A DNA stretch of 54,605 nt from a virus (taxonomy: Duplodnaviria; Caudoviricetes): positions 1 to 54,605 of the IMG/VR virus record IMGVR_UViG_3300037114_000023, one strand, 5' to 3'. The position numbers and the translations under genes are program-made. Position 1 is the stretch's first letter; each line of letters begins with the position of its first letter. Below are positions 123 to 44,900 of the stretch, one piece after another. The notes below the pieces were generated by a model. It was not told the DNA's origin. It made no database searches and worked only from the letters and a program-made list of their open reading frames with translations.

Positions 123-389
123 TTAGTCGCTTGGCGGTTCGGGCGGTTCTTCCGCAATTTCGAGACATTCCAGTTCAATCGCCTCAAGGGTCATTTTCGG
201 CAGCTCGTCCCGAACATTGCCACCCTCAACGGTGATGCTGTTAATTTCAACGTGAGCCGGTTCGTCCGGCTCCAGCGCAGGTCCGGCACCGCGAACGCCG
301 CAGCACGAATCCCGCGCACCGCGGCAGGCGGGGTGATAGGTGTAATCCACTGTTGCCTCAACTTCGATTGTGATTTTTGTTTGGCTCAC
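123..389 (-). CDS. Hypothetical phage protein
   Basis: 88-aa ORF tightly packed in the minus-strand operon. Confidence 0.7.
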   Translation of the reverse strand: MSQTKITIEVEATVDYTYHPACRGARDSCCGVRGAGPALEPDEPAHVEINSITVEGGNVRDELPKMTLEAIELECLEIAEEPPEPPSD

Positions 390-4464: not shown

Positions 4465-4512
4465 CGCAGATTTTTTGCTTGAAATGATGGCTTTGCTGCA
4501 TACCCTCCGTTT

Positions 4513-4881
4513 ATGGGAATAAAATATATCAAGCTCCTTTGGCGGATTGCCTTCGTGCGCCTAGCCCTTTACGTCCTTGTGACCGTTGGGACGGCTTTTA
4601 GCATCGCAACCTACAATGTCGGCTTCTTCTCGATGAACGGCGAGCAGCACCTTGCGCTGGCTGTTTCGCTCGCCATCCTGGCGGCGAAGGACATTATCTC
4701 TTTCCTTGATTCATCGGCCAAGCGAATTGAGGCGGGGAACTATCTGCCGCCTGACCCGCCTGAGACGCAGGAGCAGAAGGCGCAAATTCAGGCACAGAAA
4801 CCGCTTGACGCTGGCCCGATTGTCGTCGTAAATTCCCAAACCGAAGCACCTAAACCCGCTGAAACAGTTAAACCATTATGA
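4513..4881 (+). CDS. Putative holin (2 TM)
   Basis: Two TM segments and a charged Pro-rich tail, in the lysis-like cluster. Confidence 0.55.
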   Translation: MGIKYIKLLWRIAFVRLALYVLVTVGTAFSIATYNVGFFSMNGEQHLALAVSLAILAAKDIISFLDSSAKRIEAGNYLPPDPPETQEQKAQIQAQKPLDAGPIVVVNSQTEAPKPAETVKPL

Positions 4882-5489
4882 AAAGAATCATCCTCGCTCT
4901 AACCATCCTCGCCACGGCTTTCGCAGCGACGGCGCAGACGAATATTCCTCCGGCCAACACAAATTTGTCAGTCGGCCAAAATCTGTCGCTGGCCCTGCAA
5001 ACTCTCGTCTCATCCACGAACATGCTTTGGGAAGCTCATGCGACCTACACACCCAGCCTCGCGCAGCATGTTGGCGGTGGCGTCGGTGGTTATTACCTTC
5101 TCAGCCAGACCGGCAGCGGCACGGTTACGCTGGACACTTACACCGGCCTCCGTATTGATTGGGTTGACGGAGGATTCTGGATGCCGCAAGGGAACGTCGG
5201 ATTGCAGACGCCGATTACCGTATTTAGCAATCTCGTCGTGACACCTTTCACTTACGCTGGAATCGGCGTCCCGCTCTCTGGCGCGTCCATCGGCGGCATT
5301 TCTATTGGCGGCAGCGTCAAGGACAACGACGGACAGGCAACGGCCATCATCGGCGCGGGCGGCGCAATCTCGTTCCTGTCGCTGGACAAAGGAAAATGGA
5401 ACGCTGGTATTCTTGCGGACGTTGAAAAATGGAGCGGATTTTCCGGCAATCAATTTCGATTTGGATTGTTCGCTCGAAAGAATTTTTAA
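4878..5489 (+). CDS. Putative 8-stranded outer-membrane beta-barrel protein
   Basis: Signal MKRIILALTILATAFAATA; about 8 amphipathic strands; C-terminal FRFGLFARKNF. Confidence 0.65.
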   Translation: MKRIILALTILATAFAATAQTNIPPANTNLSVGQNLSLALQTLVSSTNMLWEAHATYTPSLAQHVGGGVGGYYLLSQTGSGTVTLDTYTGLRIDWVDGGFWMPQGNVGLQTPITVFSNLVVTPFTYAGIGVPLSGASIGGISIGGSVKDNDGQATAIIGAGGAISFLSLDKGKWNAGILADVEKWSGFSGNQFRFGLFARKNF

Positions 5490-5738
5490 CCAGTCGGCGT
5501 CGGCTCATTTTCTACCTAGTAGGAGAGCCGCCGGTGGCGGAAGCGATATGAATTTATCAACGCCTCAAAGCAGTAGCGGAATCAGCCAGAGCAGGCCATT
5601 TCCTGCGCGGCCCGTGAAGATACGGCAAGTGCGAGGCATATAACACAATGAGCGTAGCGGGCGGCTGCGTCAAAGGTTCGGAAAAGAACAAAACGGGTGC
5701 ATGGCCCGACCGCCCTCGATTTAATCACGCCGCTGGTT
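5488..5738 (+). ncRNA. Candidate multi-branched structured RNA (~250 nt)
   Basis: Basal stem AACCAG(T)CGGCGT/ACGCCGCTGGTT encloses at least 7 nested helices; strand assumed from the operon. Confidence 0.55.
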
Positions 5739-5748
5739 TTTAGAGTTT

Positions 5749-5856
5749 ATGATTCTTTTTTTAATGGTTCTCGCCTTCGCAGTCGGGCATCTTGCCGGAT
5801 ATATTCGAGGTTTGAAACACGGCCACAATGATGCAAACGGAAGAAACTTTCCATGA
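5749..5856 (+). CDS. Small membrane peptide (35 aa)
   Basis: MILFLMVLAFAVGHLAGYIRGLKHG..., ATGA-coupled to the next gene. Confidence 0.55.
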   Translation: MILFLMVLAFAVGHLAGYIRGLKHGHNDANGRNFP

Positions 5857-6362
5857 CCACAGACCGTCCAGACCTGCGAGTAGGAGATATTTGCACCTAC
5901 GCTTCTCAAGGTGATTTGGTTGACCGGCTGATAGCTTTAAAGACGTGGGATTATGTCGTTCACACGGAAACTTATATCGGCTCTGATTTCTCCGTGGCTT
6001 CGCGCAACTTCATTGGGATTAACAAATATCCCGTTCGTTGGAATAATCTCTATCGCGTTTATCGTCCGGTTGTCCCGTTTGATTTGGACAAGGCGATGTA
6101 TCGGTTTGAAAGGGAATGGCGCGGTCAGAAGTATGATTTGCTCGGCGTTTGCCTCGGCTTCGAGTTCGCTGAATGGCAGGCAAATCCATTCAGGCAATGG
6201 TGCAGCGAGTTCACAACTAATTTTGCGCGGGAAGGCGGCTGCATGATATTCCAGCCTGAAACCGTTGCTGACAGAGTTGCTCCGGCCTCGCTCCGCTATA
6301 CCAGCGAGAAGGATTTGAAAATCGTTTTTCAAAGCAGCAGCAAGAAAGGATTGCAACCATGA
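5853..6362 (+). CDS. Permuted papain-like NlpC/P60 amidase (YiiX/YaeF, peptidase C92-like)
   Basis: LRVGDI...H (VVHTE)...GQKYD...WCSE, with His before Cys. Confidence 0.75.
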   Translation: MTTDRPDLRVGDICTYASQGDLVDRLIALKTWDYVVHTETYIGSDFSVASRNFIGINKYPVRWNNLYRVYRPVVPFDLDKAMYRFEREWRGQKYDLLGVCLGFEFAEWQANPFRQWCSEFTTNFAREGGCMIFQPETVADRVAPASLRYTSEKDLKIVFQSSSKKGLQP

Positions 6363-6826
6363 AACAACCCTCCCCTCTCATCGTCTCCATAATCTTCGCC
6401 ATAATCCTCGTCTTTCTGGCTTGTCATGTGAAGGGGCAGCCATCCGCACCGCCGGTCAAAGGCACTGCCGCTTGGAACGAGAGCATTTATCAGATGGGAA
6501 GGAAAACAGCGATGGCAGCAACACCAACCCCTGACGTTCTGATTGTCGTTGTGCCGAAGGTGACTAACTCCTGCACGCTTCTGGTGACGAACAACACGGT
6601 GACGATCACGAATTATCAGTCCTACGTGGACGGCAAGCTCGTTTCAAACTTTTGGACATACACTTTTGCCCCTCCATTTAACTATTTCTGGTCAAGTAAC
6701 TCTGCTGGCCCATATTCCAACGCTGGATTTGTCATGCAGGGAAACACAAACCCGATGGAAACATTTCAGTTTGTGAACGGCAAAAGGTTCTTCTACGCGA
6801 AACTGGCGGGGAACGTGACGAATTGA
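6359..6826 (+). CDS. Secreted or membrane-anchored Thr/Asn-rich protein
   Basis: N-terminal hydrophobic helix, beta-rich C-terminus. Confidence 0.6.
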   Translation: MKQPSPLIVSIIFAIILVFLACHVKGQPSAPPVKGTAAWNESIYQMGRKTAMAATPTPDVLIVVVPKVTNSCTLLVTNNTVTITNYQSYVDGKLVSNFWTYTFAPPFNYFWSSNSAGPYSNAGFVMQGNTNPMETFQFVNGKRFFYAKLAGNVTN

Positions 6827-7080
6827 TGGACGACTTCAAGAGCATTGACGACGTGCGGGCGGAAATGTGGCGGCGTAGGGAGTTGCGGGATAAGCCTAAG
6901 AACATCGTCCCGCTTCCCACAAGGTTGCATCAAGTGAGCGATGATGAGTTGGTGAAGTTGTTGGAGAACGAAAATCAGGAGCAAATCGGTAAAAGGTTTG
7001 GCGTTACTCAAGCGGCCGTGTCTCTCAGCCTTCGGCGGCGCGGGCTGAAACTGGTGGCGTTGCGGCGGAAGTATGGATGA
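6826..7080 (+). CDS. HTH DNA-binding protein
   Basis: NQEQIGKRFGVTQAAVSLSLRRRG. Confidence 0.7.
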   Translation: MDDFKSIDDVRAEMWRRRELRDKPKNIVPLPTRLHQVSDDELVKLLENENQEQIGKRFGVTQAAVSLSLRRRGLKLVALRRKYG

Positions 7081-7118
7081 CCGGATGGCTTTTGACGCCG
7101 CTCCATAAGCCATGCCGC

Positions 7119-7147
7119 TTGTAAATATTTAAGACCGGAAATATGGT
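7119..7147 (+). promoter_or_regulatory. Sigma70-like promoter, probably leaderless
   Basis: TTGTAA-N17-TATGGT, with the ATG 5 nt after the -10 box. Confidence 0.45.
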
Positions 7148-7152
7148 GGGGC

Positions 7153-7794
7153 ATGTCCGAGATAACATCACTCTCAATAAACAAGGCGCTTTTGGATGCC
7201 GAAGGAAACTTCGACATCGCCGCGGCTTCCCTGGATTTGACGGTTGAGAGGCTGCGTGACCGGGTGAAGGAAGATGCCGCGCTCAATACCAGATGGCTGG
7301 CAAATGCCGCAGCGCCGCCCAGCACAGCCATCCTGAACCGGGAGTCTGACCCCGCGATCATCGAGGCTTTGCAGCGGGAGGAATCGAAGATAAAATCTGG
7401 ATTGGAAAAGATGGGGCTTACCCAAAACCAGACCGGTGTGGCCGTGGCCTGCATGGGGTTTTACAAACAGCACTTCGCCTCCCTGCTGAACCTTACCGGC
7501 GGCGGACTGGCCAAAACTGTGGTTGAGGCGCTGGAGTCTGTTTCGGAGATGGGCAGGGAAATCAAGGAGATTGGGAAGCCTACGCTCCCGCAAGACCTGG
7601 AATATCTCAAGGCGTTGCTCCGCGCGCGTTCCGATTTGCAGGATTACATCCTCCGGGCCTCGACGATGGTGAACCAAAGCCTGCTGATTCTTGCCAAGGT
7701 GCAAAACATTTCCGGTGCCGGCAGGAGAGCCGCCGGACCAGGGCGCCCCGGATTTGACAGCGTGAGGCGGGCGGATGTCACTGAAACAGAATGA
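7153..7794 (+). CDS. Probable terminase small subunit
   Basis: N-terminal HTH-like GNFDIAAASLDLT; helical; ATGA-coupled to TerL. Confidence 0.6.
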   Translation: MSEITSLSINKALLDAEGNFDIAAASLDLTVERLRDRVKEDAALNTRWLANAAAPPSTAILNRESDPAIIEALQREESKIKSGLEKMGLTQNQTGVAVACMGFYKQHFASLLNLTGGGLAKTVVEALESVSEMGREIKEIGKPTLPQDLEYLKALLRARSDLQDYILRASTMVNQSLLILAKVQNISGAGRRAAGPGRPGFDSVRRADVTETE

Positions 7795-9386
7795 AAACAG
7801 AAAAGATGACCAGCGAAGGGGTTGAGCTTTTGGCCCAATATCTCGGCGACCAGATTGAGCCGACCGACGCGCCGCCACCGCCGAAAGGAAAGCCTTCTAA
7901 GGCTCCCGCAGATGGCTGGAACCCTGATCTTAACCCGACCCAGAAGAAAATCTTCGACGACCCTGCTGAGAACATCCTAGCTCATTCCGAGAAAGGCGCG
8001 GGAAAAACCATCGGCTTCGCGCACAAGGCCATCCGGCACGCTTACGAGAACAAGAACGCACTCGTCCTGATTATCACGCCGACGATACGAACCGGCAATG
8101 AAGGCATCTGGTACGAAATGGAGACATTGATACTTCCCGCCTGGTCGGAAGGCATTGGACTGGAATACACGAGTTCGCGGCTGGACCCGCTCACGAAAGA
8201 CCGGCATCGCTGGATACGAAACAAGTTTGGAGGCTGGTCGAAACTCCTGCTCATGTCCATCCCGTACGCCAGTCAGGTCGAGGCGCGCATGGCAGGCATG
8301 GCCCCGAGCATGGTTGTGATTGACGAGTTGGACAAATGCGATGGGCGCGAATACTGGACGCTGGTATCCTCGCAGTTGGGACGCCGCAAAGGCATCACTG
8401 GTCCGCAACAATACTGCGCGTCCTGCAACCCCAAAGGGCCGATCCACTGGGTCTATCAGGTATTTTTCGTGGAAAACGTCCATCAGGATACCGGCAAGCA
8501 GATGCACAATTTCTCGGTTTACCATGTTCCGATTACCGAGAACATTCACCGGTTGCCGCCGGGATACGTCGAGCGATTGCACTCGACCTGGGCCAATGAC
8601 CCGATCATGTGGAAGCGGCTCGTCGAAGGCATCTGGATTGACGTTCCAAGCGGTGACGGCCTTTTCAAAATGCAGTTCCGGGCGGACATCCATATCAAGG
8701 GCGATGCCGCAAAGGGGACTGGATTACAGCCCAAGGTGGGTTATCCGGTTTACATCGGGTACGACATAGGCCAGGTGTGGCAGGGCATCACCTTTTTACA
8801 GTCCATCCCGACGCCGGGAAAAAACATCTGGATCGCCTTCGATGAATGCGACCATCTGGACGAGCGCGTAATTTTCAAGGTGCTGGCATGGGAAGTCATC
8901 GAGCGAATGCGCTACTGGCGGAGACGGATGAATTACCAGTTTCAGTACGTGCATATCACAGACGAGAGCGCCATCAACCAATGGCGGCCCGGCGGCGAGG
9001 GCAGTTACGACGCATGGGAGTTCGAGCGGGAGTTTAACGAGGTTCTGGGCGAGTTCGGCGCTATCGGCGCGGAGGGAAAAGTTGAGCCGGCGAAGATGCT
9101 GGGTTGTCCAAAGGGGCCTGGCTCCATAGCGGCCCGCGTGCGGTTGTTGCAGAGTAAATTGCTGCAACAGGAGTTTTTCGCAGGGGCGCAATGCGCGAAC
9201 GTCAAGGATTGCCTGATTAACCTTGACCGGGACAAGAAAGACCCGTCCGTTCCCAGCCGGTCAAGGTGGTCGCACAAATTCGATTCGATTACCTACGTGC
9301 TGTTCAAGGTGGAGATCGGCGGAGACGCGCGGCTGCATCTTACGATTGCCCCTCAACCGGCGGTCAGGCTGATACGGCTGCGGTAG
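7791..9386 (+). CDS. terL: Terminase large subunit
   Basis: Walker A HSEKGAGKT, Walker B VVIDE, coupling motif ASCNP, nuclease IGYDIG and C-terminal HKFDS. Confidence 0.9.
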   Translation: MKTEKMTSEGVELLAQYLGDQIEPTDAPPPPKGKPSKAPADGWNPDLNPTQKKIFDDPAENILAHSEKGAGKTIGFAHKAIRHAYENKNALVLIITPTIRTGNEGIWYEMETLILPAWSEGIGLEYTSSRLDPLTKDRHRWIRNKFGGWSKLLLMSIPYASQVEARMAGMAPSMVVIDELDKCDGREYWTLVSSQLGRRKGITGPQQYCASCNPKGPIHWVYQVFFVENVHQDTGKQMHNFSVYHVPITENIHRLPPGYVERLHSTWANDPIMWKRLVEGIWIDVPSGDGLFKMQFRADIHIKGDAAKGTGLQPKVGYPVYIGYDIGQVWQGITFLQSIPTPGKNIWIAFDECDHLDERVIFKVLAWEVIERMRYWRRRMNYQFQYVHITDESAINQWRPGGEGSYDAWEFEREFNEVLGEFGAIGAEGKVEPAKMLGCPKGPGSIAARVRLLQSKLLQQEFFAGAQCANVKDCLINLDRDKKDPSVPSRSRWSHKFDSITYVLFKVEIGGDARLHLTIAPQPAVRLIRLR

Positions 9387-10562: not shown

Positions 10563-11279
10563 ATGCCAGCCAGATTACAACTCGTGGGGCAGAAGTTTAA
10601 CAAACTCACCGTAGTAGAGTCCGCTGGTTCAAGCAAGTTCGGAACGAGCCTTTGGAGGTGTGTATGCGAGTGCGGTGGTGAAAAGGTTGTGATTGGCAAT
10701 AATCTTAAAACCGGCCATATAAAAACCTGCGGCTGTTCGATTTATTCCAATAATAAGACCCCGGACCAAAAGAAAGAAATCAAGTTCGCCCATGAGGCCA
10801 GACGAAAGGCGGCATATAAAGCAAGTCCAGAAAAGAGAAGGGCTGCGGTAATTCGGGCGAGGCGGTGGATGAATTCAAATCCAGAAAAGTGGCGAGAGGG
10901 ACACAGAGTTTATCAAGCTAATTTGCGACAGCAGCCGCGCAATAAGATTCATTCAAGGATGTCTGCCGGGGTTCGGGCATCCATGAGGGATGGAAAGAAT
11001 GGGCGAAGCTGGGAATCAATTCTTGGCTACACGTCCGCCGATCTTCACAGGCATTTGAAACTGCTTTTCAAGCCGGGAATGACCTGGGAGAAATTCGCCG
11101 CAGGGGAGATTCATATTGACCACATCATCCCGAAGGCGAAGTTTTCGTTCACTTCGGAGAATGACATTGACTTCAAACGCTGTTGGGCGATGGAGAACCT
11201 GAAACCGGAGTGGGCGCTTGTGAACACATCGCGCGGAAGCAAAATTCTTGAACCGTCACAAATCGCTTTAGGTGTATAA
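10563..11279 (+). CDS. HNH homing-type endonuclease
   Basis: N-terminal GQKFNKLTV...WRCVCECG DNA-binding module; C-terminal HIDHIIP...CWAMENL. Confidence 0.8.
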   Translation: MPARLQLVGQKFNKLTVVESAGSSKFGTSLWRCVCECGGEKVVIGNNLKTGHIKTCGCSIYSNNKTPDQKKEIKFAHEARRKAAYKASPEKRRAAVIRARRWMNSNPEKWREGHRVYQANLRQQPRNKIHSRMSAGVRASMRDGKNGRSWESILGYTSADLHRHLKLLFKPGMTWEKFAAGEIHIDHIIPKAKFSFTSENDIDFKRCWAMENLKPEWALVNTSRGSKILEPSQIALGV

Positions 11280-14340: not shown

Positions 14341-15765
14341 ATGGCAGACGCACCCAGCACTGTAGCCCCCCCACCGCCCGCACCGCCCGAGCCACCGGCT
14401 GCACCAGCAGCGCCGGAACCGCCAAAGCCAGCCGCAGACCCGTTGCTTATGCGGATTCTGGAGGGTTTGAAGGGCGAGCCGGAAACCCCGGTGGTTGCCG
14501 CGGCACCCGAACCGCCGGTAGAGCCGCCAGTGGCACCGCCGGTTGAACCGCCCGTCGAGCCTCCTGTTGTTCCGGCCGCCCCAGCCGCCCCGGCAATCAA
14601 AAGGATAAGGTCGGTCGCGCAGGATCACCCGCTGTTATCCACCGAACCAGCCCCGCGCCAACCGGCAGTAGCGCCGGTATTGCCGCCGGTGACATCACAG
14701 CCGGACATGGCTCTCACCGAGGAACAGCGCGACGAACTGGCCGAGGCGATGGTGGCAGAGCGGTTGTTCCCTGATAAATACAAGGGATTTTCGGACAGGC
14801 TCAGGGCGTGGATGCAGAAATCCAGCAGCGAGCAAGAGGCCCTGTTCCAGCAAAATCCAAACATCACCCAGGAGGACGACGAGTATCAGGCCACTCTCAA
14901 GGGCAAGCCAAGGATAGGCGAGGGGGACGCGAGGAAGGTTCTCCGAACGATGGGCGCCGAGGAAGCCACCCGAGCCACCAGGCAGGAAATGCAGCCTGCC
15001 ATTGAGAAGGCGGCGATGGACGCCAAATACGCGAAGATACTGCCGGAGGTCAAGGAATTCGTCAGCAAGAAGTTCGGGCTGTATATCGCGCAGGTAATCC
15101 AGAGCGATGAAAAATCCCCGCTGTTGCCCTGCCTGAAACTTTACCTTGAGAAAGGCGAGGAAGCTGCGGCAAAGAAATACCCGCTGGAATTCAACATCCT
15201 CCGCGACCAGACCAGGACCATCCAGACCATGACGGCGGAGTTCATGTTCATGCGGAACAACGCGAAACCTTTCGATCCAGCCAACCCGCATCACCTTGCC
15301 GTGTCGGACTTTATCGCCCAGGAAGGGCGGGCCTTCGAGCAAAAAGGCGGGAAGATGCTGGTTCGCAATGGCCGGATGTTCATGCCCCGCGAAAAATTCC
15401 TGAGTCTCTACCGCACCGACCTGGAGGAATGGAAAAGCTGGGATGAACAAAACTGGACGACGAACCGGTATTGGACGTTCACGGACACCGCGATTACCGA
15501 CATGATGGGGTGGCGGGTGAAGCAGGCATCCGAAAATTTAATAGATGCCGAGCGTCAAAGGGCCAAAAGATACGGCTTTACGGAAGCGCCGCCCGAACAG
15601 ATTGAAAATCCGCAACCGCCGCCGCCGGAGCCGATACGCGCGCCAAGGACGACGGTAACTCCGGCACCTGGAAGCACGACGCCCCCGAAAACGGCCTCAA
15701 CCGAGGGCGATACCGCCATCCCGGTAAGCAAGGTGGCTTCCTACCTGAAAAAGACGACAGTTTGA
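14341..15765 (+). CDS. Probable capsid scaffolding protein
   Basis: Pro/Glu repeats (PVEPP), helical, between portal and capsid. Confidence 0.55.
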   Translation: MADAPSTVAPPPPAPPEPPAAPAAPEPPKPAADPLLMRILEGLKGEPETPVVAAAPEPPVEPPVAPPVEPPVEPPVVPAAPAAPAIKRIRSVAQDHPLLSTEPAPRQPAVAPVLPPVTSQPDMALTEEQRDELAEAMVAERLFPDKYKGFSDRLRAWMQKSSSEQEALFQQNPNITQEDDEYQATLKGKPRIGEGDARKVLRTMGAEEATRATRQEMQPAIEKAAMDAKYAKILPEVKEFVSKKFGLYIAQVIQSDEKSPLLPCLKLYLEKGEEAAAKKYPLEFNILRDQTRTIQTMTAEFMFMRNNAKPFDPANPHHLAVSDFIAQEGRAFEQKGGKMLVRNGRMFMPREKFLSLYRTDLEEWKSWDEQNWTTNRYWTFTDTAITDMMGWRVKQASENLIDAERQRAKRYGFTEAPPEQIENPQPPPPEPIRAPRTTVTPAPGSTTPPKTASTEGDTAIPVSKVASYLKKTTV

Positions 15766-15798
15766 TTGTAAGTTGCCAATCTTAAATTCTCGAAAATC

Positions 15799-15835
15799 GG
15801 CACTGGAAAATGAAGGCTTCCAGTGCCTTTTTCTT
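15799..15835 (+). terminator. Intrinsic terminator
   Basis: GGCACTGGAA/TTCCAGTGCC stem followed by TTTTTCTTT. Confidence 0.7.
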
Positions 15836-15906
15836 TGTACGCCCATGATTAACGATAAAGTAGTGGGTAACAAAAGGCGCACATCGCGCCGAAACGAGAA
15901 ACGATT

Positions 15907-17823
15907 ATGGCAATTACGAATACGCCTCCGGGAGCTTCCCAAACTCCAAACCAAGCCGCAAATGGCTTTAACGCTGATAATTGCAGTCCCCGGCTGATCG
16001 AGGTGGATGATGCAATGAGTCTCACCCGGGCGAACATCACTGGCTGGAACCCATCCGACATTGAATCCAATTTCTTCAAGGAAGTCGGGCTGGACCGGAT
16101 CATCGCGCAGACCAAAGAGGCGCGGATGGCCGGCTCGATGCAGCGTGTATTGAGCGACCTGTTGCTCTCGCGCCACACCCCGCTCAAGGTTGGCGGCGGC
16201 GTAAACACCCAGTCCATCATTCAGCCTTTCCGCTTGGTGCCGCGCCGGAACCGCGTGAATCCCGGATATTTCCGAATTCGCACAGGCGCAACACTGGCCA
16301 CTTGGACCGGCCAGGGTGGCAACGGCACCACGAATGTCGCTTTCACTGGAGTTTTCAACGGGGCCGTCAATTACAATTCCGCCATCGGCGCATTGTGGGT
16401 TTTGACCGTGAACAACGGCAGCATTGATGCAGATAGTTCGCCGTTCGCGAAATCCCCGAACAATGTCCTCAAAAATCCCGAGAAATATTTCCTTCCCAGA
16501 CATGGCCTTACCTGCGAATGGGTGGACAACAGTGGAAACCACCAGGTCGCGCAGATGAAGATTGTGGACAGCGCCTCCGGTGCGGACACCAATCAGGCTT
16601 ACATTTTGGTCTGCCCGAACCGGACGTTCAAGGGCGACTCGACCATCCCCAGCGGTACTTTGACCCCGAACGGCACTACGCCGGCAACAGTTACCGGTGT
16701 GTTTGGCGTCCTCTCCGCCTCGACAAATGGCTGGTGGGAATCCGCGAGTTCCGGCGTTCAGGCCACCTATCAGCCGCCAACCGGACTCTGCCGCATCGGC
16801 GCGAACTCGGTCAGCGATTATCAGCAATACGGCAACTCGACGCCCGGTTACAACGAGTACGGGCTGATCGAATACTGGAGGCAGACGCACCGCTGGGTTC
16901 ACCAGTATAACGATGAGTACGTCAAGGCATTGGAAGCCACGACCACGAGCGAAGGTTTGAAAAAGTTTCGGTTGCTTCCCCTCGCCAAGCTCCGCGCTCA
17001 ACAGGAGAAGTTTTCCGACGATTATTTCTTCGAGACCTGTTTTTACGGCGACATCATCAACGAAAACCAGACGGTTTCCGGATGGTTCAACCTGCCGCCT
17101 GTGGTTGACCCCGCGTGGGCGTCCTCCGGCCAGAGTGGCACGCTCGCCCTCGAATACCTGTCGAACACCATCGGCATCCGCCCGCAGATTGCGGCTTGCG
17201 GCAATGTGTTCGATTTCCAGAACGGCCCGCTCGACGTGGACGCCATTTTTGAAGCCGCTTACTTCGTGCGGCGCGAACGCCAGGGAGAGGCGACCCAGGA
17301 AGTCCGGGACATTGACATAATGACCGACAACCTTTTCACCCGGCCATTGCTGCGCCAGATGATGACCAAGTATTACAAGGCGAAATACGGCGTGGACAAT
17401 GTCCAGATGTGGATGAAGTCCGGCGAGAAAATCAGTTTCATGGGCATGGTAATGTTCGAGTATGACAGCTACGAACTGCCCGACCAGGGCTTGACCCTCC
17501 ATGTGTTCGGCGACAACTACTTCGATGACCGTGTGGCCCAGTTCCAGACCGGCCAGAAATCCGCTGGTCGCGGCATTTGGATGTTGGACTGGTCGGACAT
17601 CGCGGTCGGCGTGATGAAGTCCATGAGCGTGCCCCGCACGAACAATCTGGCGGACAACGTCTATAAGTTCGTCATCCAGCAGAACGTGCAGCATGTCCTG
17701 CTCAACAGCAAGACCTTTGAAGTCGCGGTCGGCAACACCAACCGCCATCGGCTGTTTGAAAACTACAGCGATTCGTGCGCGAAACTCACCGTCCCCGGTT
17801 GCGACCTCTCGGTGAACCAATAA
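15907..17823 (+). CDS. Major capsid protein with a large insertion
   Basis: 638 aa, position, strong codon bias, own leader and terminator context. Confidence 0.7.
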   Translation: MAITNTPPGASQTPNQAANGFNADNCSPRLIEVDDAMSLTRANITGWNPSDIESNFFKEVGLDRIIAQTKEARMAGSMQRVLSDLLLSRHTPLKVGGGVNTQSIIQPFRLVPRRNRVNPGYFRIRTGATLATWTGQGGNGTTNVAFTGVFNGAVNYNSAIGALWVLTVNNGSIDADSSPFAKSPNNVLKNPEKYFLPRHGLTCEWVDNSGNHQVAQMKIVDSASGADTNQAYILVCPNRTFKGDSTIPSGTLTPNGTTPATVTGVFGVLSASTNGWWESASSGVQATYQPPTGLCRIGANSVSDYQQYGNSTPGYNEYGLIEYWRQTHRWVHQYNDEYVKALEATTTSEGLKKFRLLPLAKLRAQQEKFSDDYFFETCFYGDIINENQTVSGWFNLPPVVDPAWASSGQSGTLALEYLSNTIGIRPQIAACGNVFDFQNGPLDVDAIFEAAYFVRRERQGEATQEVRDIDIMTDNLFTRPLLRQMMTKYYKAKYGVDNVQMWMKSGEKISFMGMVMFEYDSYELPDQGLTLHVFGDNYFDDRVAQFQTGQKSAGRGIWMLDWSDIAVGVMKSMSVPRTNNLADNVYKFVIQQNVQHVLLNSKTFEVAVGNTNRHRLFENYSDSCAKLTVPGCDLSVNQ

Positions 17824-35939: not shown

Positions 35940-38900
35940 ATGCCTGACCAACTCACAATAGAACAGCTTTTACAAGGTACTCCAAAGATACCGGAGGAAG
36001 GCGGACTGGATTCGCCCGCGCCACAGTCGAAGGGTAATCAGCCAGCGAGCACGTTGACGCTGGAGGGTTTGCTCAAGGGGACACCAGGGGCGGATCAGGA
36101 CGCAGTTCCACAGACTACCGCAATGGGCACAGCCGCACGCGCCGCAGTCTCGAACATCGGACCGGGTGCGGCTGCGGCGGCGGCTTTTCCGATTGGCGCG
36201 GAAAAGGGCGCTGCGATAGGGGCGCTTGTGCCCGGTGCGGGGGAAACCGGATTGTCGGAAGCTGCTGGAGGGCTAATCGGTGGAACCATCGCGGCAGGCG
36301 CGGCGGCATGGGCGGCAGCAAAGGCCCAACACGCACTAGCCTCGACGCTGGCTCCCGAGACCACGGAGAAGTTCAACCAAGCGGAAGCCGCGGGCGAGGA
36401 AGCGCATCCCGTTGCGGGTGCGATCGGGCGGCTGGCCACCATGCTTCCAATGTTCGAGTTTGCTCCGCAGAACACGGTGGGCGGACTATCGGCGCTTTAC
36501 AAGGCGGCTCGTGGCGGGACGCTCACGGTGGCGGAGAAGCTGGCGGCCAAAACTACAGCGAGTCAGGTGGGATTGCAGACCGGTCTTGGGGTGGTTCAGC
36601 CATTGATGTTTGGAGAAAGCCCGACAAAGAAGGGGATTGCAGAGGCTTTTGTCCAGTCACTTTTGCTGGGGCATCCTCGATATGAGATTTTTGGCGCTCC
36701 GGCAGCGGAGGCCATTGGGAAGGAGGAGGCGGCGACGGACGCGCAGACCGAGAAAGCGCAGGGTGTCGTTCAAAATCCAGCCTCAATCTACAGTCCGCCG
36801 CCGCCGCCCGACTTGACGCCGGAACAGCGCGGGCAACTGTCGGAATTGGCGGCTCGCACGGCATCGGGCGCGCCGGAGGACGTGAACGACGCCCAGCATT
36901 TGAAACTAATGGGCGAGAATGAGAACGCCCGGAAGTATTACGAGCAGCAAAAGCAGGGTTGGGCGCAACTCATGGCCTACACGCTGGCCGGCAAGTCCAA
37001 GATTGAGACGGTGGGGGATGGTGGTCAGGAATCTCCGCAAGCGCAGCCTCAAAAGTGGTATTCCTCAAATGATTCCGTTGGTCCAAAGCAGACACCACAG
37101 GGCGATACAATTCACGGATTATCACTCAGCCAAGACCCGCTTTACGCCGGAGAGTATTCAAAGACTGGGCAGGTTCACGAATTCGACTTGTCTGGGGCAA
37201 AACTGAAACCTGTCAGTTTTGACTATGGGATGACCATTACCACCGACAAGTTGAATCAAATCAGGTCGGAGGGTTACGACGGGGTATCGTTCGATGGGAT
37301 GCATGGCCCGGAGGTCGCTCTGGTAAACGATGTGGCTAAAAAGACCGGAACCGTCAACGCCTTGCAGGAGAAATTCAACGAGGCGATTGCGGACGGCAGG
37401 CCAATAGGGCGAGTGGAGCAGAGGCTCTACGCAGTGAAGGGCTTGCAGTTGCCGGAGGTTTACCACCAGCAGGAGGATGGCTCATGGATACGCGCAACCG
37501 AACCTGGAAAGCCACCTGGCGGCGATGCTGCACGCCTCGAACAACTCCGCGCCATCCCAGAGTCCCAACGCACGCCGGAACAGGCCGCGGAATTCAACGC
37601 GCTTGTGGCTAAATCCGGTTCCGTTAAGGACCAGATGGCGGCTGAATTTGCGAAACTCAAGGCGGCACAACCAATAGTTGACCAACCGGTAAACAATCCG
37701 CCCGTGGCTCCCGGCGGCAGCACACCCGCGATGGCGGAGTGGACTAAACATCAGGGCGATCCCGCTGAATTAGTCCAGAGGATGCAAAACACGGCTGAAT
37801 CCGGCAAGGTGGCCGTGGCGACTGGCGAGGGCGGTGTTGGCAGGAAGTCCGCCACAATGTATCAGGATTTGACCGGCAAGCCCGCTGGCGAAGCCAAGGA
37901 GCTTGTGCGGCAGGACGTGGCTGGATCCAAGGAAGCCGGGGCGCAATCCCGCAAGCTGGTGGCCATGCTGTCCCCGGACAAGTCCCATGTTCTCGTCGGG
38001 ACGGCCAGCGAAACCAGGAGCGGCGAGACGCGGACTTTGAAGGTCTCGACCTACGATGTGGGTGCTGGCCGTAAATCGCCCGGCGGTGAGCATTTCGCCA
38101 GCAATTACGATAAAATGGTGGCGGATGGCTGGCAGCCGTTGGCGAGTCTGAAAACCGACAAACCGGCCAAGGGATTCTTCGCTACGTATTCGCCAGAGCA
38201 GTGGAAAACCATTGAGACGGAACTGCGGGCGAGCCATCAGGCGGCGCAACGCACGGCGGAGGCGATGGAGCAACACCTTGCGGCTGGCAAAGACTTTGGG
38301 CGCGACGTTACCGTTAACGCTGACGAAACCGGAGAACACCCCCCGGAGGAAGCGCCGACACCTGAAGCGGCGGTTGAACACCCGCCGGAACGGGTTGTAA
38401 CGGCTGAACATGCGGAGGCTATCGCAGAGGCAATCAAGGGCTTAAAACCCGAGGACATTGCCGACCAGAACTCGATGGCGTTAGCGATAAAGAAGGCCGG
38501 ACCGGATGCGGTCGAGGCTTTCAAGGTCATGGTTCGCCATGCCTTCGATGCCGGTTTTCCAGAAGATAAAGCGGTAAGTATCGTGCATGAAATACTTTAT
38601 GAACATTCAAGAAGCGGCGAAACGAGTGGGCCAGAAGTGGAAAAGTCCTTCCTACAGAAAGTCGGCCAGGGCGGCGATGAAAACGCTGGGAATAACACCG
38701 GGAAGCCTCCAGGTCCAGACACAGGACCAGGTAGCGAAGCAGCCGGAAATAAACCAGGCGCAAGCGGAACTGAAACGGGAGCAAACCCAGATGCAGAAGG
38801 TGGCGGCAAAGGAGGGAGCAAACCCAATCCCGCAGGTACTCCCCTCGGCACTCCCGCCAGCATAGCCGGAAAGACAGGTAAGATTTTTCTGCCGGCCAAG

Positions 38901-41900
38901 CTGGAAAGGCCGCATGACATCGTGGACGAGATTCAGGGTCAGGTGGGTAAGATACGGTCGCAGAATGCAGCCAAGCCCGGCACGGAGGATCATTACGCCA
39001 CAGACGCTTATAAGCAGGTTCGCAAGGCGTTTCCCAATATGTTCTCCGATACCGGCAGCACGGCGGACCAAGTGGTATCCGCGCTCATGCGAACCGGCCA
39101 CTTTCAGGAAGGGGCCACCGTGGATGATTTGTGGGATGCGATGCTGCGCGCGCGCGGCGAGCGGACGGCTCATGCCCGCGGCCAGTTGCCGGAACAGAAG
39201 GCGGACAAGTTTCAGCAGGCGGTATCGGATAATCTTGCCAAAAAGGGTAGCCACAAGCTGTCGGTCGGCGAACTGTCGGTCGGCGACACGTTCAGGATTA
39301 AAGGCGCGAGCTTCGAGGTAAACCATATTGATCCGGACACCGGAGAGGTCCAGGTAAAGGATGGCAAGAAATTCGGCTATCAAGTCATCCCGGATGGTGC
39401 GGACATAGCCGTGGATGCTGGTTCGCTAAAGCAAAATCCTCCGGAATCCGGCGGTGACGACCCGTTCTCGGACGAAAATGTCCGCAATCGCACGCGCCAG
39501 GCCAAGGAGGAAGTTGAGAATCTTCGCCCGGGGGACGCCCATACCGCGAGAACGCTGGACGTGGTTGAGCGCAACCTTACCGCACTCGGCATCAAGGTCA
39601 GGCGGATTATTGACCCGTTGGTTGACCATTTCAGCACAGGTTCGTACAAGGAACTCACCAATGGCCGGGGCAACGCGGAGAGGATTGTCACCTACTCGGT
39701 AGCTGACGCCCACAAGCCATCGGCTGACAGCCTCGTCAGTCTCTACCACGAGGTTTTGCACGCGATATTCGCCAGGGAAAGCCCGGAAATGCAGGCGGCG
39801 GCGCAACGGGCGGTGCGGGACGTGTCGAACGAGGAATTGGGAATCGGCAAGTTCAAGGAGCAAGTCCCTCAAAATTTACCGGAAAACGTGAGGGAAGGCG
39901 TCCAGCAGGAAGGGCGCATAGCGGAATCTCTGGCCCGAAAGCTGGTCAACGACGGATTTGACCCAGTGACCGCCAACAGCTTCATGCAACGCGCCGTGCG
40001 GCTGATACGGGACGTTTACAACGGCGCACTCATGGCACTGGCCAAGGTGGCGGGGTATCCCATCAGCCAGGAACGGGCACTGGCGTACTTCGAGAACCGG
40101 ATGAAGATGGTGGTTTCCGGCGATATGATGTCTTGGATTAACTTCCTCGGTGGACCAAGGATGAAGATGCCAGACTGGGACAGCCCGAACATCGGCGGCG
40201 TGGAGCGTTACCGCAGCATCAACTCAGTCAGTAACCCGCGCAAGTATCTGGACACCAAAGAGGGCGCACCGACGGGAATTGCCGCACTCAACCACTTTTT
40301 GACTTCGATGAAGGCCATCGCCCATGAGTGGGGCGTCTCCGCTGGCAATCTCGCCGGCATGACGGACGAGCAGGTCATGGCACGATATATCAACCTGCCG
40401 GAAAAGCTGGGCGACCAGGATTTGTTCACGAACGGCGACACGCCGCAAAGCCTGATCGCCGACGCGGTAAAGCAACACGGCGTTAGTCCAGACACTAAAA
40501 TTAGTGATTTGCCTAACGACGTGGCCAAACAACGGGCCTTGGTTGTGACACACGGAATGCTGTCCGCGGTGAAGGCGGAAATGGAGGGTGTCGCAGGCGA
40601 GGCTCGCACGCAATGGAACAAGGACGCTAACGCATTGGAGCGCAATACCAGCCAACTTGACCGCCTGGCCAGTCATTACGTGGACATTGATTACATGGCC
40701 AGGACGGCCAGGGACTCGATGCTGCAACTCGTCAAGGACGTTACCGGCGCCGTCCGGGGCATCCGGGATGTCTCGGCGAGAAAAGGCGAGGTCGAACAGA
40801 CCTTGGCGCAACTGGACCCTGCCAGCCAACTCAACGGCCAGTTGACGGCGCCGTACCGGAAGGCACTTGATGTAATACAAAAACGGCTGTCCGGCGAAGT
40901 GACCACGAATTTCGCGGATGCTCTGCAAACCATTGGCAGCATGGACATTGACTGGAAACGACCGAGCCATGACATTGCCAATGACTTGCTCGCCAAACAC
41001 AGTGAGAACCCGGAATTGAACCATGCGCTTCGGGAATTCCTTGGGGACAATCCGGAGTCGAAGGCGTTGCTGTCCACGTTGATTGCCTACGGTAAGGCCA
41101 ACAGTCATATGATGGACATGCTCGCGCTCCGGGCCGACCGCGCCAGCGAGAATAAGATTGAGGCTAACCAGATTTTGCGGGACATGGTGGGCGCGAGCAA
41201 GGGAATGCTCGCGGAACTCAAGCAGCGCATCAATTCCACGTTCGGGAAAAACATGCGGATGCGCGACCGGATGCTCCGGATTTCCGATAAGATGGATGAT
41301 TTGAGCGACCGCAACCATGACCTGTTGGACTCCATTGCCCGCAATAAATCGCTGGTGGACTTTCATGAGGACATTTTTAAACCGGCGGTGAACGGGGAAC
41401 TTGCGGCCGTAGAGAAGGAAACCGGCATCACGCTCAAGAATTTCGAGGTTGTGCATGACGCCGAAGTCTCCGTCCCTGCCAAGCCCGATGCGACCCCGGA
41501 CCAGTTCGCAACGAGAACGCTTAAAATTCGCACAGCCTTGGGCAAGCGCGGCGATTTGCCGACGCCATCGGCGGAGGTCATCGGCTGGCAGCGATCAATT
41601 CAAAAGTGGCTGGACAATCCGGAGAACCTGAAGTACGGGGCCAAATACAACGAGATGGCGGACGTGGCGCTGAAACTGAAAAACCACGCCATCAGCAATG
41701 AACACCTGAATATCAAAACGAATTTCCTGGAACGGATGCTCGCGCCGATACAGGACCGATGCCGACAGGCCGGGACAGAGGCGGCGCGATTGGCTGGGCA
41801 GGGGTTTAATAAATTCTCGTCGCTCGTCCGTGGCAAGCGGGAAATGGCCGTCCAGACCGGCACCAATTTTTCCGCGCAACTCAGCCGGGCAAAGAAGGCG

Positions 41901-44900
41901 TTGGGCTATCCCAACGTCGAAAACGGCGTCTTTTGGAAAACCATTATCTCGCCGCAGCTTCACGCCTTGCAGGATCGGGCGGACATCTGGGGGACTGCCA
42001 AGACGGAAAAGGAAATGATTGACCGGGCAGTCAACGCTGTCGCGGATGCCTTGAAGCTGAAAGACCCAGCCGCCAGGGATGCGGTTTCCAAGCTCATTCG
42101 GATTCACGCGGACAACTCGACCGAACTCCGCAACCACGGCGCGGAACTGGGGAACAAAGTCAAGGACATCGGCGGCGCACCTAAGAGCAGCATCTTCCGT
42201 CTGGCGCTGGGCGTTGCTCCCCTTGTGCTGCCCAGGGCGACCACGGCTCAGGCGATTGATTTTTACCACGAACACATGGGGCGGTCATGGGGTGGTGATA
42301 AATTGGATCTTCCGGCAATACGGGACATGTACGACAAAGACCCGGATCAGTTGCGGGCATCGCTGCAAAACCGGTTTACCAAGCCGGTGTGGGATTGGTT
42401 CGTGAAGTCACTGGCCGAAAATGACAAGCCGCACTTCTCGGCACCGCCGGAGAATGGTCTTTCCCCGCTGGCCGACCGCGAGAACATCATTAAGGCATAC
42501 CAAGGGGCGCACGGCGATCCTGTGGCGTTTGCCGAACTGATTGCCGCGCTGCACGACCACAAGGCCGATGGCGCTTTCGTGGCCGACACCTTGGATACCA
42601 TGCAGAATTTCAGCAACTTGCTGCGAACCATGGCCGGTGACGAGGCGGAGTCCGTGACGCGGGGAAGTCCAAACCCGCCGCGCTTCATCGTGGACGCCCG
42701 GCATTGGGAAGCCGCGCCGAAAGAGTGGTGGGATTACCTGATGACCGACCAGAACACCATGCTCCGGGTGATTAACGGGCAGGCGCACCAAGCGGCCTTT
42801 GGTCGAAATGGCGAGGCTCAGGACAATCTGCTGTCCACCGCCATGAACGAGCAGCGGGAATTCTACACGAAATATCAGGCATGGCGACAGGAAGCGCAGA
42901 ATGTCAATCCCGGCATCAAAGAACGGGAGTTGCAGGCCATGTTGAAGGCGCGCGCGGAGAAGGAGGGTATTTCCTTCGACGCGCTTAAAAACGCCAAGCG
43001 AAACTTGAACGGTTTGACCAACGCCGCTCAGCATTACGACGCCATTCAGTCCATGAACAATTCCGGCAAGATACCGGAACTCCTGCCGTGGCTCCGGGTG
43101 TTGCATACGATTGCCGGCGGGACGGTGGCCGGTGCCGGTACAGCGATCACGGCGCACAGCGTCTTTCTGGAGCAGCCGGCGAGACACCTTGGGTTCGGCC
43201 CGCGCTCGCTGGCGATGACCGGGCGTGCCATCACCGATTTGGCCGGCACGATGGCGAATTCATTGTTGCAGGCGTTCGGTCATTCCGTGGTTTACGAGGC
43301 GCGGCGCACGCTGGACGCCAATGATGGCGGCATCTATGACCCGATTAACACCAATAAAGACCGCTACACGGTGGCCTATGAACACGCGCACGCGGCTTAC
43401 CGCGACTCCAGCAGGCTCGGGCAGACGGTCGGCACCGCAGCGGATGTCGGGGCGGCGGCGATGCAACATGACGTGTGGGGGCCGGGAGCGCGGGAGAAGG
43501 CATTGGCGCGGCAGGCGGCGGGGCAGCCGGTGGCGCCCAGCCTCAAGGCGTTGTCGCCCTTCCATTGGATTGCCAAATGCCTGGAGATTTCCAACTTCAT
43601 CACCTGGGAGCGGCATATTGAGGGTATGGTCGCGGCCGGGGCGAATCATTTTGAGTCAAACCCGGAACACTACGCGGACAATGATTTCAGGTTCACGCCC
43701 AAAACCCTCAACGGCTTCAATCCCGGCGACCGCGAGTTTAATTTTCTGAGTGACCGTCTGGCGCAGTACGGGGCGAGCATCGAGCAGCTTTCGCGGGAAG
43801 CCTATGACAATCGCGGGACCAGCAAGCCGATGTTGTCCCATGAAATGCGGAAGAACATCCAGCAGGTCGTGCTGAACGAGATAACGCTGGAATCGTCACT
43901 GACGAGCCGGATGCCGTCACTCCAAACCAAGGGACTCGGCACGGCGATGAATCCGTTTCTGGGGTGGCCGCTGCAAAAGACCTATCAGGTTATGCGGGGG
44001 TTCCGGCAACCGGACGGCGTGGCTTCGGCTTTCCGAAACGGGCTGACGCCATACCTGGCGATCCTGCCGCTGGGCATGGCGGCGGCATGGCTCCGCAACA
44101 AGTTCGACGAGGACGTGCTGGGGAGGAAGCAGAATGTTTCAGACATCAGCCAGATACATGACGTGAAATCCGGCCTAATGACCGCCCTGGACAATGCGAG
44201 CCGCGTGGGAACCTTCGGACTGCTGGGCGAGGGAGCGAATTACTTTTTGAGCAACGACAACGTGCGACCGCTCTCGGTGGACAACCGGATTTTCTTCCTG
44301 AACACCTTGGAAAACGCTTTCAATGCCGCGCGCGGTTTGTATCAGCAGACCGGCCCGCAAATTATGGCTGGAAACTTCGAGGGTGCGGAAAAAACCGCGA
44401 CGGATTATCAGACGGTCTGGAGGCCGATAATTCAATCGCTGGGCGGCAATGGATTGCTGCAAAACCTGGGTGCGGTGAATCATCTCCTGGCGATTGACGA
44501 CGCGGAAGCCCGCGTGAGCAACCGCATCTCGGTGAACAATTACCTGCGGGTGGCTGGCCGCGAACTGAATCTCGATGTCCGCACGTTTGGCGGGATGATG
44601 TCCGATCAGAGCGTGCCGGGTCCGATCAAGCCGTTTGTGGGAAAGATGGTGTTGGCGGCTTACGCGAACAACAGCGAGGACTTCAATTCCTCGATGCGCG
44701 ATGCGGTGCGGCAGGCGAAAACCGAGGGCATGACCTCCGACCAGGCGATGAAAAAAGTGGTGGGCATGTACGAGGCGCAAAGCCCGATCCGGATCGTGTT
44801 CAAATCTCCGCCGACGGAAATGGAATACCGGAAGCTCATCGCTCAACTGCCAGACAACGGGAAGCAATCCGTGCAACAATCCATCGCGCTATTCAACCAT

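Follow-up and report, generated by a model that had tools for sequence, protein, structure and literature searches.

The phage record IMGVR_UViG_3300037114_000023 (Caudoviricetes; positions 1 to 54,605, referred to here as the window, or W in comparisons) contains a gap between two genes at 5490-5748, and the question raised by this locus is whether the gap encodes an RNA and, if so, of what kind. A first-pass annotation made from the letters alone had proposed that nearly the whole gap folds into a multi-junction RNA of ~250 nt, closed by a basal stem and representing a novel phage non-coding RNA (ncRNA), a ribozyme or a lysis-regulating element. Eight homologous loci, located on metagenome and viral contigs (L011-L018), point to a shorter unit: 5562-5722 on the + strand, hereafter the element, is very likely a genuine conserved structured RNA, consisting of domain 1, a linker and domain 2. 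The proposal of a novel phage ncRNA was borne out, in that the core is conserved with compensatory changes in the eight loci and has no match in Rfam 15, and the ~250-nt extent proved to be an overestimate, the conserved RNA running from ~5554/5562 to 5722. The family is uncatalogued in Rfam 15 and is only loosely connected with lysis.

Identification of homologous loci

Runs from peat (X3) and lake water (X6) contain several contigs that match the window only over ~5547-5622, at 80-90% identity and with the variation centred on 5581-5584, and then continue into unrelated sequence; X6 alone has at least five variants. A pattern built from the constant parts retrieved four metagenome contigs (L011-L014), and a second pattern, taken from a part unused in the first, retrieved four viral contigs (L015-L018), which a third, looser pattern found again. 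These homologues align to the window over 77-195 nt with 80-93% identity. A covariance model of domain 1 built with Infernal from the nine members (R1) scores them at 75-113 bits (E ≤ 3e-18); the window, itself among the nine training sequences, reaches 105.9 bits (E 6e-27), and nothing beyond the nine was recovered from the 187,795 nt searched. A very weak second R1 match (12.4 bits, E 0.46) at G005:C1:33365-33466 is probably noise.

No blastn match to 4500-7200 was found in GenBank phages, and a 19-mer pattern from 5585-5603 had no match among viral contigs. Two exact patterns found no genuine copy in 185,579 prokaryotic species (one genome each), a search that diverged copies would escape. 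The sole reference-genome match, on a contig of a metagenome-assembled genome (L019), was rejected as 23 specified bases within a coding region with the 3' half of the core missing, as was a viral record (L020/L028) with 19 specified bases within a coding region and no R1 match. Among IMG/VR viral contigs, the 203-aa protein encoded upstream of the gap, the 169-aa peptidase encoded downstream and the large terminase have no close relative, and nine loci of the peptidase family (L002-L010) were rejected too, as they have only the peptidase in common and lack the element.

Domain 1 is a nearly invariant core

Domain 1 is present in all nine sequences, with 50 of its 76 positions invariant. Its features and 5' flank are as follows.

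5554-5561, + strand: 5' flank UUAUCAAC, abutting domain 1; identical in five of nine sequences (W, L013, L014, L017 and L018) and similar in L012
5562-5637, + strand: domain 1, the core common to all members, whose 76 nt form an irregular rod or a three-way junction; defined by R1 and the alignment
5562-5566 (GCCUC) with 5633-5637 (GAGGC), + strand: P1, which covaries
5567-5569, + strand: bulge, followed by P1b (5570-5572 with 5630-5632) in the consensus fold
5572-5575 (AGUA), + strand: one side of an internal loop of the consensus fold, facing GAAG, a variable stretch and AAG
5576-5579 (GCGG) with 5612-5615 (CCGU), + strand: P2 of the RNAalifold consensus, paired in 9/9
3' of the P2 5' strand: 5-nt bulge, the middle three bases of which (5581-5583) are hypervariable
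5585-5587 with 5609-5611, + strand: P3, invariant pairs in 9/9
Between P3 and P4: small internal loop of the consensus fold
5591-5595 with 5602-5606, loop 5596-5601, + strand: P4 hairpin, invariant pairs in 9/9 and a loop that varies

Pairing within domain 1 is closely maintained: 97.8% of 180 pair cells are standard, compared with 26-51% when the partners are slid by 1-3 columns, and none of 500 shuffles reaches its covariation score. P1 reads GCCUC/GAGGC in W, GCCCC/GGGGC in six members and, fully swapped, GCGGG/CCCGC in L015 and L016, three of its five pairs being changed on both sides, and a G.U pair of P2 found in six sequences becomes A-U in three. The letters of AGUA (5572-5575) and GAA (5616-5618), beside P2, are invariant in 9/9, an arrangement that presumably resembles the loop E / sarcin-ricin (bulged-G) motif. 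The signature of domain 1, a covarying P1 together with GCA / GUA-RCGG / bulge / GCC-ARA-GCAGG-N6-CCUGC-GC-GGC-CCGU-GAAG ... AAG-UGC, is displayed by the window. Identity to W ranges from 55/80 to 71/77 in domain 1 and from 40/88 to 48/74 in domain 2, so that domain 1 is conserved far more strongly than domain 2. Candidate roles of the 5' flank are a promoter remnant, a processing signal or a single-stranded tail; UAUCAAC also occurs 12 nt 5' of a tRNA-like gene in L014.

All eight helices listed by the first-pass annotation were found in the sequence at their coordinates, and the homologous loci upheld six of them, the basal stem and the 5' hairpin being private to this phage. GCCTC/GAGGC (P1) and the helices GGGCGG/CCGCCC, GTTC/GAAC and CGGGT/GCCCG of domain 2 all covary among the homologues. 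GCAGG/CCTGC (P4), invariant in 9/9, is no more than compatible with the fold. The CCGT/ACGG hairpin is present, being fully kept in 5/9, with one pair broken in L011 and L012 and a shifted position in L015/L016, but it is rivalled by the better-kept pairing RCGG/CCGU of P2. We prefer P2, because the two use the same CCGU and are not able to coexist, and P2 is kept in 9/9.

Domain 2 combines a hairpin with a putative pseudoknot

Domain 2 can be aligned in four of the nine sequences (W, L012, L013 and L014), on which its counts rest.

5638-5650, + strand: A-rich linker, variable in sequence and length
5651-5671, + strand: hairpin Palt (5652-5657 with 5665-5670), whose loop is the 5' strand of P5
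5659-5664 (GGGCGG, in the Palt loop) with 5710-5715 (CCGCCC), + strand: P5, closing the putative pseudoknot
5676-5689, + strand: P6 hairpin GUUC-GGAAAA-GAAC, with an invariant GGAAAA loop
5694-5708, + strand: P7 hairpin CGGGU/GCCCG, paired despite changes of sequence and length
5716-5722, + strand: tail UCGAUUU, directly 3' of P5 in all four sequences (UCGAUUU or ACGUUUU)

P5 forms six of six Watson-Crick pairs in 4/4 sequences, which read GGGCGG/CCGCCC, GUGCGG/CCGCAC, GGUCGG/CCGACC and GCCCGG/CCGGGC, with two pairs changed on both sides, and in Palt 92.9% of cells are paired and three of seven pairs are changed on both sides. Taken together, Palt and P5 have 96.2% of 52 cells paired, compared with 31-50% when slid, and 5/13 pairs changed on both sides, a covariation score that none of 500 shuffles reaches. 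P6 is GUUC/GAAC twice, CUGC/GCAG in L013 and GUCC/GGAC in L014 (two of four pairs changed on both sides), and P7 becomes GAG/CUC in L012, UGCGAG/CUCGCA in L013 and CGAAC/GUUCG in L014. Because P6 and P7 are one base out of register in two sequences of the MAFFT alignments A4 and A5, the P6 counts come from a 14-column alignment of its own, and those of P7 solely from a script. The search for homologues and covariation that the first-pass annotation had called for thus gave covariation in P1, Palt, P5, P6 and P7.

A blind script searching for hairpins with a loop perfectly complementary to 6 nt further downstream located this arrangement at an offset of +14 to +18 after domain 1 in W, L012, L013, L014 and L018, in the last of these although the sequence there is unrelated. 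L017 showed a different arrangement, and L011, L015 and L016 none; in the background, 2-15 of 200 shuffles per locus gave any match. The signature of domain 2, a 7-nt hairpin loop paired with a strand 50-75 nt downstream and two hairpins enclosed, is present in the window. On these patterns, domain 2 is carried by W, L012, L013, L014 and L018, and possibly also by L017. Palt and P5 could coexist as an H-type pseudoknot or alternate as a switch.

Folding energy and non-conserved flanks

On the + strand, 5488-5738 folds with an energy of -98.1 kcal/mol (z -3.28), and none of 200 shuffles is as good; a repeat with 30 shuffles gave a weaker z of -2.54, and the - strand has z -2.15. The minimum free energy (MFE) fold holds four of the eight listed helices, namely the basal stem, CGGCTC/GAGCCG, GCCTC/GAGGC and CCGT/ACGG. 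The shuffle test suggested in the first-pass annotation therefore came out in favour of the segment, which folds better than shuffled sequence, yet against background windows it is unusual rather than decisive. A scan of 206 of the 218 non-overlapping 251-nt + strand windows (40 dinucleotide shuffles each; 12 not computed) gave a mean z of -0.20 (sd 1.15), with z ≤ -3.0 in 3/206; the strongest values, -4.36 at 11001-11251 and -4.26 at 15751-16001, lie within long open reading frames (ORFs). Folding energy puts the segment roughly in the top 1-3% of windows and is not decisive alone: since 3/206 windows reach z ≤ -3.0 and coding windows ~ -4.3, energy cannot carry the claim. These background values, and the weak z of the sub-domains, are what would speak for a GC-rich spacer that folds well by chance, an explanation of negligible probability that is refuted in practice by eight homologues on otherwise unrelated contigs with compensatory changes.

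Outside the conserved unit, the following structures were predicted in the window.

5488-5500 with 5727-5738, + strand: basal stem of the MFE fold, phage-specific
5501-5530, + strand: 5' hairpin of the MFE fold, phage-specific

In the MFE fold, positions 1-6 and 8-13 of the 251-nt segment are paired with 240-251. The gap-closing basal stem is, however, not part of the conserved family. Neither it nor the 5' hairpin has a counterpart in L011-L014, L017 and L018, where flank complementarity is no better than in shuffles (11-28 of 40 as good), and the stem was rejected as a family feature; in W itself the flank-to-flank complementarity is marginal (z -1.68, 3/40 shuffles as good). In L015 and L016 alone, domain 1 is enclosed by long flanks that are significantly complementary to each other (z -4.1 and -3.6, respectively; 0/40 shuffles). 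At ~418-587 of L015 (- strand) and ~4580-4790 of L016, domain 1 is bracketed by inverted repeat arrays, each arm comprising three direct repeats of 8-9 nt spaced ~10-11 nt apart (about one helical turn). The repeat words, of the CACAGATG type in L015 and the CACGAAT/CACTAAT type in L016, differ, yet they are complementary across the element. Judged by their layout, these arrays could be operator-like protein-binding sites or a long processing stem.

Known RNA classes and coding potential

The first-pass annotation had seen no signatures of transfer RNA (tRNA), transfer-messenger RNA (tmRNA), RNase P or hammerhead, and ARAGORN and Rfam agree. ARAGORN detected no tRNA or tmRNA gene in the window and none at the element in the eight loci, and the P4 loop has 6 nt, compared with the 7-nt anticodon loop expected of a tRNA. 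The cmscan search against Rfam 15 left the element without any family: the whole window gave no match at gathering scores, 4800-6500 no relevant one at E ≤ 10, and L011-L018 none at E ≤ 1. No match to tmRNA, RNase P, signal recognition particle (SRP), 6S or Y RNA-like families was obtained over these three ranges, and none to hammerhead, twister, twister-sister, pistol, hatchet, hepatitis delta virus (HDV)-like or hairpin ribozymes in 4800-6500 and L011-L018. Riboswitch classes likewise had no Rfam match, and the downstream genes are unrelated.

Complementary words in the phage's own genome number 34 ten-mers against 20.7 expected (shuffle maximum 38) and seven eleven-mers against 5.6 expected (shuffle maximum 13); a c4/CI-type antisense immunity RNA was rejected, as there is no excess complementarity to the own phage genome. 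Mimicry of, or pairing with, ribosomal RNA (rRNA) or tRNA was also rejected, the longest shared or complementary word being 10 nt compared with a mean of 10.1 in 200 shuffles, in a test that is weak because the E. coli rrnH operon served as a stand-in and may not be the host's.

Two 31-codon ORFs overlap the element.

5548-5643: 31-codon ORF over domain 1
5648-5743: 31-codon ORF over domain 2

It is scarcely credible that one or both of them are real small-protein genes and that the conservation is at the protein level. The frame of ORF 5548-5643 is stop-free through the core in 7/9 sequences, with ATG (W and L012) or GTG (L017) at the aligned start. However, a start codon is missing at the aligned place in six of the nine sequences, and variable columns at codon positions 1, 2 and 3 number 15/31, 15/31 and 12/31, i.e. 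with no third-position excess. L015/L016 keep the frame open over no more than 14 codons, and within the ORF W and L012 differ by 1 nt in length from the remaining W-type members. ORF 5648-5743 has no ATG in relatives. Open frames of 133-561 codons run through neighbouring features, including the antisense of the L014 integrase gene, and for this reason are regarded as shadow frames in GC-rich DNA. Protein-level conservation of the two ORFs, which the first-pass annotation had named as the competing explanation, was not found.

A matching contig in a peat metatranscriptome

A hint of expression came from a peat metatranscriptome run (RNA-seq; X2), from a study that differs from the likely source study of the window, for which the comparison covered 4800-6500 (1,701 nt). 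One contig equals 5574-5710 with no difference and has adapter at both ends; it runs from within domain 1 through the linker into domain 2, most of which it includes, and its exact match indicates an origin from the window phage or one nearly identical to it. Of the 1,565 random placements possible for a 137-nt piece along the 1,701 nt, 25 would lie wholly within 5562-5722. Only 5574-5710 is covered, and nothing was concluded from the uncovered parts. The contig extends from 5574, at the G/U junction of AGUA, to 5710, where the P5 3' strand begins; these ends could be due to fragmentation or natural. A further run, X4, contained only a 151-nt exact piece of the peptidase gene.

Carriers, neighbouring genes and strand

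Proteins from stop-to-stop ORFs of at least 70 aa were compared between W, four complete viral records (G002-G005) and four metagenome contigs. G002 and G003 are related (74 BLASTP matches), and all other between-record matches at E ≤ 1e-5 are translations of the element itself; relaxing to E ≤ 1e-2 added two short weak matches only. On this comparison, the element is the sole detectable similarity among at least four phage lineages.

The genes around it differ accordingly between lineages. In W it lies beside a probable lysis cassette and the terminase; G002/G003 (L015/L016) have a superinfection-immunity protein and a lipoprotein upstream and a class 3 lipase and terminase downstream; L011 has a RusA-like resolvase and a helicase; L014 has an integrase, a tRNA 3' fragment and a tRNA-Met-like gene; and L018/G005 has DNA methylases upstream and a convergent ORF downstream. 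Because the neighbouring genes differ in this way, the earlier suggestion of a lysis-specific regulator is not supported. In L014, ARAGORN called a tRNA-Met(CAT) with atypical D- and T-loops at 186-259 (- strand), ~30 nt downstream of domain 2, for which the Rfam tRNA model is silent at E ≤ 1, and a canonical tRNA 3' fragment (T-arm, acceptor strand, CCA) at ~560-600 lies beside the integrase in an attachment-site-like arrangement. In L012, an ATG stands directly 3' of UCGAUUU (1219-1228), and in L013 a small CxxC...CxxC ORF starts ~14 nt past the tail (~337).

The RNA was assigned to the + strand because G.U pairs are kept there, those of P2 and Palt becoming A.C mismatches on the opposite strand, and because z is better there.

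Possible modes of action

We tentatively favour the view that the element is a stable small RNA matured from an operon transcript and acting on a conserved partner. It would be transcribed within the surrounding + strand operon, as suggested by the fact that no promoter or canonical terminator is seen around it in W, and its transcript would be matured into a stable small RNA of ~140-160 nt. Its invariant internal loops may let this RNA act in trans on a partner that would be common to many hosts or phages and most likely a protein or ribonucleoprotein. The element might then be a self-contained RNA 'moron' moving among phage genomes, not a regulator of one neighbour.

Several observations weigh against this proposal. 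The missing promoter and terminator are themselves among them, as is the small family sample (n = 9; Infernal effective number 1.33). P1b, P3, P4 and three P2 pairs never vary and are thus compatible with the fold only. Single-sequence z-scores of domain 1 are -1.68 (W), -1.64 (L013), -1.18 (L015) and +0.58 (L011), those of domain 2 range from -0.85 to -1.77, and the MFE fold of W pairs P2-P5 differently. The metatranscriptome contig is a hint from a single record, in which the ends are perhaps due to fragmentation, and RNA libraries may hold DNA. Moreover, W, L012 and L013 have + strand ORFs whose starts lie 0-30 nt past domain 2, and the RusA gene of L011 (- strand, ~2930) begins 6 nt beyond P1, at the end of domain 1.

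Such closely following ORFs would fit a cis-acting leader or intercistronic element as well as a trans-acting RNA. The folded RNA would in that case stay in the operon transcript and control what follows, as a nuclease processing site, a 5' stabiliser, a translation-initiation gate or a terminator/antiterminator switch made of Palt/P5 and the U-rich tail. We consider this rather unlikely. In its favour, heuristic ORF lists show the element sharing its strand with the nearest upstream ORF in 7/9 loci and with the nearest downstream ORF likewise in 7/9, and W, G002 and G003 have the large terminase gene 1.6-2.1 kb downstream of it, also on that strand. UCGAUUU or ACGUUUU right after P5, and a U-run right after P1 in L015/L016 (GCUUUUU in L015), suit the switch, yet the terminator scan is empty at 5700-5745, at the 3' end of W, and an intrinsic terminator leaves the 50 invariant core positions unexplained. 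The downstream genes are functionally unrelated, the next credible gene being convergent in L018 and the next feature tRNA-like in L014; domain 2 is missing in L011, L015 and L016; and a generic hairpin for processing or stability would not usually keep 50/76 positions invariant in unrelated phages. There is an outside chance that the 76-nt core represents a new horizontally moving RNA class, either a self-cleaving ribozyme or a decoy or mimic of a universal host machine or defence protein; capture may then proceed via the loop-E-like internal loop, with the pseudoknotted domain 2 as an optional stabilising or regulatory module. A new small self-cleaving, or otherwise catalytic, RNA class cutting the operon transcript, the ribozyme of the first-pass annotation, is in our estimate distinctly unlikely. 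The 76-nt core with its conserved loop and junction nucleotides, the pseudoknotted accessory domain and the occurrence in sense orientation in operons of unrelated genomes without a fixed neighbour are reminiscent of such RNAs, and the X2 contig begins at 5574, in the invariant AGUA loop. No known model matches, however, either the window region (E ≤ 10) or the eight loci (E ≤ 1), one contig end is no mapped cleavage site, and four helices are invariant here, whereas the helices of known classes covary freely.

A site acting at the DNA level (recombination or attachment, packaging, origin or protein binding), with inverted repeats that mimic helices, would account for the position of the L014 element ~110 nt from the tRNA 3' fragment beside the integrase gene, for the L015/L016 inverted direct-repeat arrays, which look like protein-binding sites, and for the fact that stem sequences and not pairings alone are conserved. 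It is nevertheless highly improbable. The kept G.U pairs would be A.C on the opposite strand, and a pseudoknot with two nested covarying hairpins lacks an obvious meaning in duplex DNA. The W element is ~43 kb from the minus-strand early-type gene block, that of the complete genome G005 (terminal repeats) is 7.1 kb from the end, and the two exact patterns revealed no host attB-like counterpart in the 185,579 reference genomes.

Comparison with known systems

The P1/P7 c4 and P4 CI immunity RNAs are stable, trans-acting RNAs of ~77-79 nt that are processed out of larger phage operon transcripts and in which small variable loops sit on a conserved scaffold. In function they are among the groups closest to the small RNA proposed here; in contrast to them, the element has no Rfam match (the C4 family would be included), no excess complementarity to its own genome and a pseudoknotted second domain of a form that those RNAs are not known to have. 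GOLLD and ROOL, which represent the other closest group, are orphan phage and prophage RNAs found by conservation and covariation, often near tRNA genes. They share with the element the absence of a conserved protein partner and of an assigned function, but they are several-fold larger and are Rfam families, whereas the element has ~160 nt and no match. Small self-cleaving ribozymes (hammerhead, twister, HDV-like) are scattered in phage genomes and resemble the element in compactness, conserved junctions, a pseudoknot, sense orientation in operons and patchy distribution, yet it matches no known class. The lambda 6S RNA and HK022 put RNA are short leader RNAs ahead of phage late operons, and in W, G002 and G003 the element similarly precedes lysis and packaging genes on the same strand, with a stem followed by a U-rich tail; unlike these leaders, the family also has members located in regions for replication or integration, or ahead of a convergent gene, and no promoter was identified.

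Fremin, Bhatt and Kyrpides (2023; PMC10690425) reported 10,006 candidate structured RNAs from IMG/VR intergenic regions, and their catalogue shares with our analysis the IMG/VR source and the kind of evidence. With five IMG/VR records including the window, and at least three unique regions needed for the catalogue, the family of the element may be among these candidates. A text search of the literature did not find the motif description, although a sequence search is not possible there and the family is thus not shown to be unpublished.

Many candidate structured RNAs exist in phage genomes, and few are common to phages without a common protein. Peat, lake and other metagenomes yielded the carriers of the element, which fall into at least four phage lineages, and the fixed core suggests an RNA gene that has moved horizontally and is either catalytic or under strong selection by a shared partner, such as host machinery or a defence system. 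Small and well bounded, the family can easily be synthesised, and the covariance model can be used to gather members and, through them, a host.

Gene layout around the element in the window

The window record is of the linear class with an estimated completeness of 76%, and a peat metagenome, possibly the one it came from, is its best DNA match among public runs. The + strand carries genes up to ~45 kb, and those around the gap are as follows.

4878-5489, + strand: 203-aa protein with an N-terminal signal peptide, the upstream neighbour of the gap
5749-5856, + strand: membrane ORF of 35 aa, from the ORF list
5853-6362, + strand: 169-aa YiiX-like permuted-papain peptidase, from the ORF list and the predicted fold
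6359-6826, + strand: lipoprotein-like ORF of 155 aa with an L-A-C motif, from the ORF list

A probable lysis cassette is formed by 5749-6826, its role in lysis being deduced from these genes. The 35-aa membrane ORF overlaps the peptidase start via ATGA, and the lipoprotein-like ORF is followed 3' by a small helix-turn-helix (HTH) protein, a 213-aa ORF and then the large terminase (7791-9386). Pfam and PDB sequence searches gave no name for the 169-aa protein. Its predicted model (pLDDT 82.9) has as best Foldseek folds the cysteine peptidase 3kw0 (E 5.7e-5) and YiiX 2if6 (E 3e-4), and His37 and Cys117 are invariant across six sequences. The peptidase family is rare, with five relatives among 5.8 billion proteins (in the length range searched) and nine viral loci. 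The 203-aa protein (4878-5489) is without a Pfam or PHROG match; it contains Gly-rich alternating segments and a C-terminal ...RKNF, and could be a phage-encoded outer-membrane beta-barrel-like protein.

The lake-water run X6 contains a contig identical to 5725-5838, as well as contigs 82-85% identical to parts of the 203-aa gene (5238-5499), indicating that relatives of the peat phage occur in lake water. Further along the window, the following ORF was observed.

35940-45035: single ORF of 3,031 aa

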